Shown one piece after another: positions 27,054-29,664 of a stretch of DNA of 32,000 nucleotides. Source of the DNA: Candidatus Diapherotrites archaeon CG08_land_8_20_14_0_20_30_16. Lineage in GTDB: Archaea > Iainarchaeota > Iainarchaeia > Iainarchaeales > 0-14-0-20-30-16. Location: the NCBI GenBank assembly GCA_002779075.1, contig PEXK01000050.1:72189-104188 (forward strand), written 5' to 3'. The stretch's first letter is position 1. Each line of letters starts with the position of its first letter. The position numbers were made by a program, and so were the translations under genes. A model generated the notes under the pieces. The model saw nothing but the letters and a program-made list of their open reading frames with translations, did no database searches and had not been told where the DNA came from.

Positions 27054-27971
27054 TTACTGTTTAATGTGAAGATTATATGTTTTTAATTCTTGGCCAAGTT
27101 CAGCATCTGGATAAATAGATTGAACCTCATGGAGTAAAGTGTTGAGATCATCATATCTTGGACTGAAGTTAATCAAAACTAATTTTTTGACTTTTGCATT
27201 CTTTGCTATTTCAGCAACATTTATTGTTACACTATGACGAGTTTTCTTTGCCTGCAATAAATCTTTCTTCATAAATGCTGATTCATGAAATAAAACATCA
27301 ACATTTTCTAAAAAATCTTCATAATTAGCATCAAAACAATCAACAACGTATGCGAGAGACTTGCCTCTTTTAATAGTTTTATAATCCATTACTTCATCAG
27401 GACTTATTTTTCTACCCTTCCACAGTATGGCTTTTCCATCCTTCAACTGGGAATATAAGGGCCCTTCAGGAATTCCTAAAGCCAATGCTTTTTCTTTTAA
27501 GAACTTACCTACAGAATCCTTCTCTTTGAAAACAAATGCAAAATTAGGCAATAAATGTTTTACCCCACGAGCAATAATTTGATATTCTTTTGTATCGCAA
27601 ATTATTCCATTATGCAATTCTACAAATTTTAGATCATATACTGTTTGTATTTCAAAAAACTCCAATATTGTTCTAACTCTCTTTTCAACACCATTTGGAC
27701 CATAAATTGTTAATGGTTCTTCTCTTTTGTGCAGAGACATTGTAGCCAATAAACCTGGCAAACCAAGAAAATGATCAGCATGAAAATGAGTTATGAAAAT
27801 CTTTGTAATAGCCATATAACTTATTTTTACTTTCATCAATTGCTGCTGTACTGATTCACCAGCATCAAATAAAATTACTTCTCCGTCATATTTTACTGCC
27901 AAACTAGTGTGATTTCTGTTCTTCAAAGGTGTAGAACTGCTTATCCCTAAAAGTGTTGCATCAAATACCAT
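27054..27971 (-). CDS. rnz: Ribonuclease Z (tRNA 3' endonuclease, metallo-beta-lactamase fold)
   Basis: Start at ATG 27971 (MVFDATLLGISSSTP...). It has the motif ITHFHADHFLGLPGLL, a downstream ESAF...H region, and a length of 305 aa typical of the short form of RNase Z. Confidence 0.88.
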   Translation of the reverse strand: MVFDATLLGISSSTPLKNRNHTSLAVKYDGEVILFDAGESVQQQLMKVKISYMAITKIFITHFHADHFLGLPGLLATMSLHKREEPLTIYGPNGVEKRVRTILEFFEIQTVYDLKFVELHNGIICDTKEYQIIARGVKHLLPNFAFVFKEKDSVGKFLKEKALALGIPEGPLYSQLKDGKAILWKGRKISPDEVMDYKTIKRGKSLAYVVDCFDANYEDFLENVDVLFHESAFMKKDLLQAKKTRHSVTINVAEIAKNAKVKKLVLINFSPRYDDLNTLLHEVQSIYPDAELGQELKTYNLHIKQ

Positions 27972-28059
27972 AATAATCTTATATAATATTATACTGAGAT
28001 ATTTAAATATTCTTATATTATATATCAATATACAAAGCGGTACTGTCTAGTGGGCAAAT
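27972..28059. promoter_or_regulatory. Shared divergent promoter region of rnz and the PIN-CCA gene
   Basis: 88-nt spacer with two similar TATA-rich blocks (TCTTATATAATATTATA at about 27978 and TCTTATATTATATATCA at about 28011), positioned for opposite-direction transcription. Confidence 0.4.
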
Positions 28060-29664
28060 ATGTTTAAAGTTTTCGATACGAGCGCATTTCTAAATAGATT
28101 CTTTTTCAACGATATAGAGGCTGTAATAACTACTAATTCGGTTTTGGGAGAGATAAAGAACAGAGAACAAAAGCAGCAAATAGACAATTTAATACAAAGA
28201 GGAAAAATACACATAAAAGAACCATCAGAAAGAGTATTAAAAGAAATACAAAAAAAAGCACTCAAAGGTCTTTCCAAAACAGATATTGAAATTGTTGCTC
28301 TGGCAGAAGAATTAAAATTAGAATTGCATACAGATGATTTTATGATACGAAAATATGCTTCTGATTTAGGAATTAAAGTAAAAGGAATTGCTTACGAAAT
28401 GAAAGAAAAAAACATTCTAGATGAAGTATATGAAAAAATAAAGCCAACAAAAGAAGAATTGCAAGAGACAAAAAGGATCTCTAAAGAAATAATTATAAAA
28501 TTAAGAGTTGCTTCTAAAAAGCTTAAAATGCCTATAAAGAAAATAATTCTAGCAGGTTCAAGTGCAAGAGGAACATTTATAACAAATAAAAAAGATTTGG
28601 ACTTTTTCCTGCTTTTCGATTTAAAGTGCAGTGTCGAGGATATAAAAATATATAATGAAAAAATACTAAAGACAGCGTTTCCAAAAGTTGAATTTTGGGA
28701 AGAGTATGGCGAACACCCCTATTTAAAATGCAGAATGTTCAATAACAACATAGATTTTGTTCCCGGCTTTTATATTACTAAAATAGAACAAAAAAAATCC
28801 GCAGTTGATAGAACACCCCTACACTTGAGGTTTTTACAGAAATATCAAAATGAAAAAATAAAAAAACAGGCTATATTGCTAAAACAATTTTTGAAAAACA
28901 ATTTATTATATGGCGCAGATCAAAAAAACAATGGCTTTTCAGGATATTTAACCGAACTCTTCATATTGAAGTTTCAATCGTTTGAAAAGGTATTAAAGGC
29001 AGTTAGCAATTTAGAAAAAAACAAATATCTTTACATCAAAAAACCAAAGGTTATGAAAAAGTTTGATGATTATTTTATTTTTGTAGATCCTACAGATGAA
29101 AATAGAAATGTTGCTAGTGCAGTTTCTAAAAAAAATTGGCAAATCTTTAATATACTTGCAAAAGAATACTTAAAAACACCAAAAGAAATCTTTTTCTTTG
29201 GTAATAATTACAACCAGGAACTCCCAAAGAATCTGTTAGCCCTAGAAATAGAAATTGAAGGTAAGACTCCAGATGTAAAGTGGGGAATAATAAAAGGAAT
29301 TGCAAAAAGACTGGCAAACGAACTTAACACAAAACATTACAACATAGACGATTATTCAGGCATAATACATAAAGATGAAGGCCTAATTGTATTTGAAAGC
29401 AAATTAAAAGATATTTTGAGAGGCCCGGAATTAAAAGATACCAAAAATTCAAAAGCATTTAGAAAAAAACACAAAAACACATATGTAAAAGACAATAGAT
29501 TGTATTGTGACATTAAATTTACAAGAAAAAAATTGGTTTCAGAAACAAAAAGAACAATAAGATACTTAATTGAAAAACCAAAAATTGAAATTGTAGATTA
29601 TAATAAACTAAAATTAACAGAAGAAGAATTAAAGAGGATAAAAAAGGACTTTTTAAAGCTTTAG
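28060..29664 (+). CDS. cca: Nob1-like PIN-domain nuclease fused to an archaeal class I CCA-adding tRNA nucleotidyltransferase
   Basis: Residues 1-115 (MFKVFDTSAF...NSVLGEIKN...LSKTDIEIVALAEELKLELHTDDFMIRKYASDLGIKV) carry the PIN acidic residues (D, E, DD) in the Nob1 arrangement. The rest has CCA-enzyme motifs (AGSSARGTFITNKKDLDFFLLF, GEHPYL, IDFVPGF, SAVDRTPLH, GFSGYLTELFIL, FVDPTDENRNVASAVS). Confidence 0.8.
   Translation: MFKVFDTSAFLNRFFFNDIEAVITTNSVLGEIKNREQKQQIDNLIQRGKIHIKEPSERVLKEIQKKALKGLSKTDIEIVALAEELKLELHTDDFMIRKYASDLGIKVKGIAYEMKEKNILDEVYEKIKPTKEELQETKRISKEIIIKLRVASKKLKMPIKKIILAGSSARGTFITNKKDLDFFLLFDLKCSVEDIKIYNEKILKTAFPKVEFWEEYGEHPYLKCRMFNNNIDFVPGFYITKIEQKKSAVDRTPLHLRFLQKYQNEKIKKQAILLKQFLKNNLLYGADQKNNGFSGYLTELFILKFQSFEKVLKAVSNLEKNKYLYIKKPKVMKKFDDYFIFVDPTDENRNVASAVSKKNWQIFNILAKEYLKTPKEIFFFGNNYNQELPKNLLALEIEIEGKTPDVKWGIIKGIAKRLANELNTKHYNIDDYSGIIHKDEGLIVFESKLKDILRGPELKDTKNSKAFRKKHKNTYVKDNRLYCDIKFTRKKLVSETKRTIRYLIEKPKIEIVDYNKLKLTEEELKRIKKDFLKL

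Follow-up and report, generated by a model that had tools for sequence, protein, structure and literature searches.

A Nob1-type PIN domain joined to a complete archaeal CCA-adding enzyme and encoded divergently from RNase Z in a Diapherotrites archaeon

Nob1 and the class I CCA-adding enzyme are the closest described relatives of the gene reported here, which lies in a 32,000-nucleotide (nt) stretch of DNA (the window) from Candidatus Diapherotrites archaeon CG08_land_8_20_14_0_20_30_16 (GenBank assembly GCA_002779075.1, contig PEXK01000050.1, positions 72,189 to 104,188 of the forward strand). Archaeal Nob1, represented by PhNob1 (PDB 2LCQ; PIN_6, COG1439), carries a C-terminal zinc ribbon of four cysteines behind its PIN domain. 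The Mn2+ site of PhNob1 is made up of D12, D82 and D99/D100 (PMC3326319), with D15, E43, D92 and D110 as the yeast counterparts (PMC5499597), and cleavage by Nob1 leaves a 3'-OH and a 5'-phosphate (bioRxiv 10.1101/2025.11.19.689297). Veith et al. (PMC3326319) reported that helix 40 is bound by the zinc ribbon on its own, which serves as an anchor, that the PIN domain binds single-stranded RNA weakly and by itself leaves the specificity of cleavage unexplained, and that the ribbon was present in every Nob1 homologue then known. Class I CCA-adding enzymes are represented by that of A. fulgidus (PDB 2DVI, 2ZH7 and 1R89), with its head-neck-body-tail fold. The gene in the window encodes a two-domain protein in which a Nob1-type PIN domain without the ribbon is followed by a complete class I CCA-adding enzyme, and it is transcribed divergently from the gene for RNase Z (Table 1).

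The two-domain composition, which had been put forward in an earlier reading made from the letters of the DNA alone (hereafter the sequence-only reading), was borne out by family models that both scored above their cut-offs. Pfam PIN_6 (PF17146) covered residues 4-85 with an expectation value (E) of 2.3e-12 (47.6 bits; cut-off 27), and NCBIfam TIGR03671 (cca_archaeal) aligned residues 120-492 with positions 2-392 of its 410 (295.2 bits; cut-off 281.3). Within the C-terminal part Pfam also identified NTP_transf_2 at residues 154-255 and tRNA_NucTransf2 at 272-380, while the tail domain matched CAA_C weakly (E 0.023), as it did in the nearest stand-alone relatives. The archaeal Nob1 equivalogs of NCBIfam (PRK12496.x) matched the PIN part only, with 40-61 bits against cut-offs of 223-311. 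In a comparison of the N-terminal 133 residues with solved structures the best match was PhNob1 (2LCQ; E 6e-15), followed by yeast and human NOB1. The PIN domain is 37-40% identical to archaeal Nob1 over about 110 residues and belongs to the same PIN subfamily, and the remainder of the protein shares with the A. fulgidus enzyme its fold, its catalytic motifs and an equivalog-level score. It departs from that enzyme in a divergent tail and in an N-terminal nuclease domain that is found in no characterised CCA-adding enzyme.

An AlphaFold (AF2) model of the fusion built on a 99-sequence alignment had a predicted local distance difference test (pLDDT) value of 94.3 and a predicted template modelling score (pTM) of 0.81, and pLDDT was mostly above 88 in the PIN domain. 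The sole weak stretch was the junction, where pLDDT fell under 50 at residues 113-115 and averaged 66 over residues 111-120. Foldseek aligned the N-terminal domain with 2LCQ (E 3e-8, 37% identity, 119 columns) and the body of the model with the A. fulgidus CCA enzyme (E 6e-30 to 1e-28, template modelling score (target) 0.68-0.72, 428-453 columns). The whole model also aligned over 535 columns (E 7.5e-11) with 7mq8_NH, a chain of 1066 residues from the human small subunit (SSU) processome; this chain is presumably NOL6/UTP22, a CCA-enzyme-like ribosome biogenesis factor. In the SSU processome Utp22/NOL6, together with Rrp7, uses the class I CCA-enzyme fold as an rRNA-binding scaffold (PMC3794860); that protein is eukaryotic, has no fused nuclease and is reported to be catalytically inactive, whereas the CCA active site of the window protein is intact.

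Conservation within the fusions was scored on an alignment of 19 full-length sequences with identities down to 43%. E31, D75, D92 and D93 were invariant, and D6 was absent only from one N-terminally truncated entry. Alignment with 2LCQ placed D12, D82 and D99/D100 of PhNob1 on D6, D75 and D92/D93, with E43 of yeast Nob1 on E31. The motifs FDTSAF, GEIK and HTDDF, in which the sequence-only reading had seen intact acidic residues, map to the Nob1 active site, and D75 in the motif LSKTD is a further acidic position that it had missed. K108 aligns with the basic R115 of PhNob1 and is kept throughout the family down to the same 43% identity. In the C-terminal part the helical-turn motif GSSARGT (G166, S167, R170 and T172), the carboxylates of D179-x-D181 and the nucleotide-selection motif DRTP (250-253) were invariant in the 19 fusions, and their conservation in the 99-sequence alignment was 90% or more. 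The third acidic position, 232, is either D or E. The PIN and CCA parts diverged at similar rates. Because the acidic residues of the one and the motifs of the other are invariant, or nearly so, across these 19 sequences, both active sites are under selection. By homology with Nob1, the PIN domain is expected to be a Mn2+-dependent endonuclease of single-stranded RNA.

The part of Nob1 that the fusion lacks is the zinc ribbon, as had also been noticed from the letters. The protein contains three cysteines in total (C190, C224 and C483) and none in residues 1-118, so that it holds no ribbon. A zinc-ribbon hidden Markov model (HMM) found no split-off ribbon ORF (open reading frame) in the window or in any of the fusion or PIN-only loci, and it did recover the canonical Nob1 ribbons of loci L060-L062. 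At the place where canonical Nob1 has its linker and ribbon, the fusion has a short linker, whose length differs between two groups of fusions, and then 415 residues of CCA-adding enzyme.

Relatives with the same architecture were collected from ENA, JGI, NCBI and Logan. They formed 18 clusters at 90% identity, of 527-551 residues, in which the PIN and CCA parts are in one continuous frame, with 43-99% identity, and further fusion loci were seen in metagenome contigs. The same 534-residue gene was present, apart from 2 nt differences, in three further assemblies from other samples (the contigs of L065-L067). The sequence-only reading had asked whether the join could be chimeric; without recourse to reads, a chimera can be excluded because independent assemblies carry a near-identical gene and the other clusters have the same architecture. 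A sequencing error that erased a stop codon between two genes could have looked attractive in view of the homologue P0121 (131 residues, locus L046), which appears split. However, frameshifts run throughout RNase Z, PIN and cca on that contig, which has 0.5x coverage, and P0121 was rejected as a stand-alone PIN protein and taken to be a broken fusion. For practical purposes the independent assemblies have already refuted an artefact, and we give it practically no weight.

The architecture is rare. CCA-domain patterns, run against one genome for each of 185,579 species, gave 45 loci, of which only three had a PIN extension, one labelled Candidatus Diapherotrites and two labelled uncultured archaeon. 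Genomes bearing the fusion include CAIWXP01, CAZMGA01 and CAZQQS01, in addition to that of the window, and the fusion occurs in a small group of tiny-genome (DPANN) archaea. When 1.84 billion representative proteins were searched with a PIN profile, 1178 matched; among the best 150 of these there were just two fusion clusters longer than 500 residues, the rest being proteins of 95-218 residues. A word-index search with the single PIN sequence returned 2 matches only, and it was the profile searches that recovered the relatives. In 42 other archaeal loci the stand-alone cca had no PIN ORF within 10 kb of it, and an origin of the fusion from a widespread nob1-cca gene pair was rejected on this count. 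We found no mention of a PIN-CCA or Nob1-CCA fusion in the literature, including a 2017 census of PIN-like domains, which agrees with the statement of the sequence-only reading that it knew of no characterised example. The fusion is a real, conserved and apparently undescribed combination of two well-known modules, in a suggestive genomic setting.

The closest relatives of the fusions were PIN-only proteins of 113-119 residues, which end where the linker starts and have no zinc ribbon. They share with the fusions the motifs LNRF, ITNSVIxEI, LSxTD and DD, and their acidic positions are kept. In a rough neighbour-joining tree and an identity matrix, a single clade took in the 18 fusions together with five PIN-only clusters. 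Members of fusion group II (P0017 and P0018) were 51-54% identical to the PIN-only proteins P0124 and P0276, as against 39-46% to fusion group I, and the CCA domains fell into the same three lineages, roughly equidistant from one another. Since group II thus stands closer to PIN-only genes than group I does to it, PIN and cca were joined or separated more than once.

The genomic neighbourhood connects this PIN domain with enzymes of transfer RNA (tRNA) 3' ends in three ways. RNase Z is divergent to the fusion in all 8 informative fusion loci, which span both fusion groups, and wherever the upstream side is visible (L001-L003, L046, L050, L051, L053 and L065-L067). PIN-only genes stand head-to-head with RNase Z in L054 and L057, and are near it with one gene between in L048, L049 (the same record as L056) and L058. 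In L047 (1-916) a PIN-only gene is divergent from, and head-to-head with, a separate cca, the product of which begins exactly at the fusion junction. These arrangements (RNase Z with the fusion, RNase Z with PIN-only genes and cca with a PIN-only gene) are genuine support for tying the PIN domain to tRNA 3'-end enzymes.

Neither of the two tRNA genes in the window encodes CCA, as the sequence-only reading had stated, and the same is true of a third tRNA gene of this organism, so that CCA is not encoded in any of the three. The third gene (L068, 13898-14056, minus strand; 159 nt, anticodon CAU) has a long intron after the anticodon loop and was found by Rfam and missed by ARAGORN. A CCA-adding enzyme is needed because the tRNA genes examined do not encode CCA, and since the enzyme is intact and all three genes depend on it, it is essentially certain, judging from sequence, that the C-terminal 415 residues of the fusion perform CCA addition for this organism. 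In both window tRNAs the hexamer TCACCA directly follows A73, which puts its CCA three bases out of register, and the two copies are inverted around an ORF at 13156-13812. We estimate from base composition that the chance of an identical hexamer after two tRNAs is about 1e-4, and we treat the motif as a lead rather than as evidence. As a general trailer signal TCACCA was nevertheless rejected, given that the trailer of the L068 tRNA is TTTAAATGG, with neither CCA nor TCACCA, that the tRNA-Glu of a metagenome-assembled genome (MAG) with the PIN-only gene has the trailer CTTGGGG, and that the window shows no enrichment of the heptamer ATCACCA, which occurs 4 times against an expected 3.5. In a lineage with canonical Nob1, CCA is encoded directly in the tRNA gene.

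We favour, as a tentative reading that we would put somewhat short of an even chance, that the PIN domain has been retargeted to tRNA 3' ends, where it would trim trailers or remove aberrant extensions before CCA is rebuilt. Compared with Nob1, the rRNA anchor has been lost and a flexible linker attaches the PIN domain to a module that holds tRNA by its acceptor/T-arm helix; because a tRNA-gripping enzyme stands in the place of the ribbon, the PIN domain may have been redirected to the RNA that the CCA module holds. The CCA module would dock a precursor tRNA, or a tRNA whose 3' extension is aberrant or damaged, and the tethered PIN domain could then cut the single-stranded 3' tail of the docked tRNA. 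As Nob1-type cleavage leaves a 3'-OH, it is compatible with direct CCA addition, and the product might be extended by the CCA site of the same polypeptide or of a dimer partner. RNase Z would stay the main trailer nuclease, with the PIN domain as a back-up or quality-control cutter. The swap of anchors, the 3'-OH chemistry and the recurrent placement beside RNase Z and cca make a role at tRNA 3' ends the best supported. What has been observed are the identities of the domains, the conservation of both active sites and of the fusion, the loss of the ribbon and the neighbourhood with RNase Z and cca; nuclease activity, a tRNA substrate and coupling of the cut to CCA addition are inferred from them. 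The sequence-only reading had offered three functions, namely coupled cut-and-repair or quality control of tRNA 3' ends, trimming of the TCACCA trailers and replacement of Nob1, without choosing among them. The neighbourhood has strengthened the link with tRNA 3'-end enzymes, and trimming of TCACCA trailers has lost ground, as the third tRNA and the tRNA of the PIN-only lineage are without the motif. AUCACC is the core of the universal 16S rRNA 3' tail GGAUCACCUCC, a region normally handled by Nob1 and its partner Dim2/Pno1. In the most far-reaching version of the proposal one polypeptide would both cut tRNA 3' extensions and rebuild the CCA end, making up a compact module with RNase Z, and in its sharpest form the cutter would recognise the trailer A-UCACC-A of the two window tRNAs, in which the core of the 16S tail is repeated; we consider this version rather unlikely.

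Several observations weigh against retargeting, and most of them are equally the grounds for a different reading that we regard as plausible although short of probable, in which the PIN domain is the lineage's sole Nob1 and still cleaves pre-16S rRNA at site D. The ribbon would have been lost before the fusion to cca, the two activities would be independent, and the link between PIN and cca would be an accident or at most co-expression of genes for the maturation of stable RNAs. RNase Z and the CCA enzyme already form a complete pathway, in which a third activity is not demonstrably needed. The best matches of the PIN domain are genuine Nob1 proteins, and its catalytic and substrate-positioning positions are all kept. 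Loss of the ribbon recurs among Nob1-like proteins of small-genome archaea and is not peculiar to the fusions: 78 of 264 sampled archaeal Nob1-like proteins (about 30%; P0122-P0385) were without CxxC...CxxC, although some of these may be fragments, and a near-identical pair, P0330 (165 residues) and P0299 (143 residues), differs in the ribbon, so a PIN domain without it may remain an ordinary Nob1 orthologue. No canonical Nob1 or other PIN_6 ORF was found in the roughly 60 kb available from the organism, made up of the window and about 28 kb of additional flanks, or in L001-L003, as would be expected of a sole Nob1 but in a sample far too small to decide. Distant PIN-only relatives have unrelated neighbours and no link to RNase Z (P0276 lies among unknown genes, P0283 beside PheRS), and since adjacency to RNase Z is limited to the nearer PIN-only relatives it could be inherited synteny rather than the result of selection. 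The pTM of 0.81 is not decisive on the placement of the PIN domain relative to the tRNA channel. The CCA-enzyme fold, moreover, has its precedent in small-subunit biogenesis in Utp22 (PMC3794860), in line with the Foldseek match to 7mq8_NH. Against a sole Nob1 stands the report that the specificity of Nob1 rests on the zinc-ribbon anchor (PMC3326319). The 42 other archaeal loci, in which nob1 is not near cca, provide no widespread pair as a source for the fusion, PIN and cca have been brought together in two ways, fused and divergent, and the repeated head-to-head arrangement of PIN and RNase Z exceeds what would be expected of unrelated genes at 40-55% protein identity.

Retargeting to the 3' end was also weighed against cleavage 5' of the tRNA body, for which PRORP and HARP provide the analogy. 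In these enzymes, too, a PIN-like metallonuclease is given tRNA specificity by an attached or oligomeric tRNA-measuring module; the fusion differs from them in its PIN subfamily and in its RNA-binding module, and the likeness is one of design, not of membership. On this reading the tethered nuclease would act like a protein-only RNase P. The 5' end and N73 adjoin at the acceptor terminus, and the N-terminus of the fusion has weak local similarity to HARP (PDB 7og5, 8kda and 8ssf; E 0.09-0.7) and to PIN_5 (E 3e-4). The similarity to Nob1 (E 6e-15) is far closer, however, and the PIN_5 match (PF08745) reached 20.7 bits against a cut-off of 27 over only 36 residues (72-107). HARPs have about 190-200 residues, with a helical insertion. 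The PIN domain has 112 and is without that insertion, and membership of HARP/PIN_5 was rejected on its length and on the partial, sub-threshold match. An Rfam search of about 200 kb from the clade found no RNase P RNA, which is uninformative at such a sample size. TATA-like boxes about 27 nt upstream of tRNA-Arg suggest very short leaders, but near-absent leaders would leave no need for such an activity, and we hold a 5' cut to be very improbable. We think it just as doubtful that the PIN domain no longer cuts RNA and is an appendage that helps the CCA enzyme in RNA binding, dimerisation or regulation. Some degenerate PIN domains do have structural roles, Utp23 being an example (PMC3860261); here, however, four acidic positions and K108 have been kept down to 43% identity, and the acidic positions are kept in the PIN-only relatives as well. 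The VapC toxin of a toxin-antitoxin pair was also tried as an identity for the PIN domain and rejected, as the neighbours are RNase Z and a conserved gene for a 274-residue protein and there is no small antitoxin ORF upstream; 2LCQ, although titled 'Putative toxin VapC6' in the PDB, is PhNob1.

If the PIN domain acts on tRNA, it would be the first archaeal Nob1-family nuclease outside rRNA maturation, and the fusion would be the first case of an endonuclease built into a CCA-adding enzyme as well as a natural experiment showing that the anchor domain sets the specificity of Nob1. It would then hint at an additional route, or a step of quality control, in how archaea form tRNA 3' ends. The HD domain of E. 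coli Cca, a class II enzyme, has phosphohydrolase activity. That enzyme works with RNase T and RNase R in a system of the same logic, in which CCA addition is combined with hydrolytic healing or trimming of tRNA 3' ends (PMC5824355); its catalytic domains are unrelated to those of the fusion, and the nucleases it works with are exonucleases encoded as proteins of their own. For archaea, nucleases beyond RNase Z are still being sought in tRNA 3'-end formation (discussed in PMC5499597). If the PIN domain is instead the sole Nob1, cleavage at site D can dispense with the zinc ribbon, and in streamlined DPANN genomes a single polypeptide can combine two essential activities of 3'-end maturation. 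Under either reading the ribbon-less stand-alone PIN subfamily and its link with RNase Z, of which we found no description, are easily tested in vitro.

Table 1. Features of the PIN::CCA fusion locus and tRNA genes of the window (positions are those of the 32,000-nt window).
Feature	Position	Strand	Remarks
PIN::CCA fusion ORF	28060-29664	+	534 residues; ATG start
PIN domain, Nob1-type endonuclease (predicted)	28060-28395	+	Residues 1-112; PIN_6, 2LCQ, Foldseek
Acidic PIN codons	28075-28077 (D6); 28150-28152 (E31); 28282-28284 (D75); 28333-28338 (D92/D93)	+	
Linker	28396-28416	+	Residues 113-119, about 8 residues; low pLDDT
Archaeal class I CCA-adding enzyme, complete	28417-29664	+	Residues 120-534 plus stop; TIGR03671
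RNase Z	27054-27971	-	305 residues from ATG at 27971; divergent to fusion
Intergenic spacer	27972-28059		88 nt; AT-rich; divergent
Conserved downstream gene	29704-30528	+	274 residues; starts 39 nt past the fusion stop
Second conserved downstream gene	30518-30982	+	154 residues; syntenic in L001-L003, L046 and L050
tRNA-Arg(UCG)	13003-13081	+	A73 at 13075, then trailer TCACCA at 13076-13081; CCA not encoded at 74-76
tRNA-Lys(UUU)	13829-13908	-	A73 at 13835, then trailer TCACCA at 13834-13829; CCA not encoded at 74-76

The RNase Z gene was identified by TIGR02651 (299.3 bits against a cut-off of 292.95) and NF000801 (300.1 against 252). Its mechanically called ORF runs 19 codons further than the start given in Table 1, to a TTG at 28028 (27972-28028, minus strand). 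This extension is doubtful because homologues align only from the ATG, and it is probably spurious and untranslated; with the ATG as start, the divergent promoter region has the length given for it in the sequence-only reading. The spacer contains a perfect TATA-like palindrome, TATTTAAATA, at 28000-28009, a putative bidirectional archaeal promoter element that we infer could serve both genes. The spacers measured in fusion loci are 53-111 nt long, and the equivalent spacers of related loci (33-111 nt) also have TATA-like, AT-palindromic runs. Two unrelated Desulfurococcales MAGs (L038 and L039) have a stand-alone cca with RNase Z some 1.6-2.6 kb upstream of it, which hints at clustering of RNase Z and cca beyond the fusion clade.

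Downstream of the fusion, the gene for the 274-residue protein is possibly co-transcribed with it and is syntenic in L001-L003, L046 and L050, with 43-65% identity. The N-terminal half of its product is a coiled coil and the C-terminal half is like a transglutaminase core, with a weak match to Transglut_core (E 0.029); C193 is invariant, and the expected His is not conserved, being Tyr in two homologues. The 154-residue product of the gene that follows had no Pfam match. The window, of 24-33% GC, is archaeal in its gene content, with SRP54, FtsY, prefoldin, eIF6, L31e, S19e, RpoL, an exosome Csl4-like protein and an XPD helicase. It contains two paralogous genes for AAA_14 + DUF4143 ATPases (4138-5397 and 25474-26682, both on the minus strand), one of which is near RNase Z, with a small ORF of 66 codons between them; this gene is also present in L046 and L055. 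A gene for a YhcG-type PDDEXK nuclease (DUF1016; 1920-2948, minus strand) adjoins SRP54 amid the housekeeping genes.

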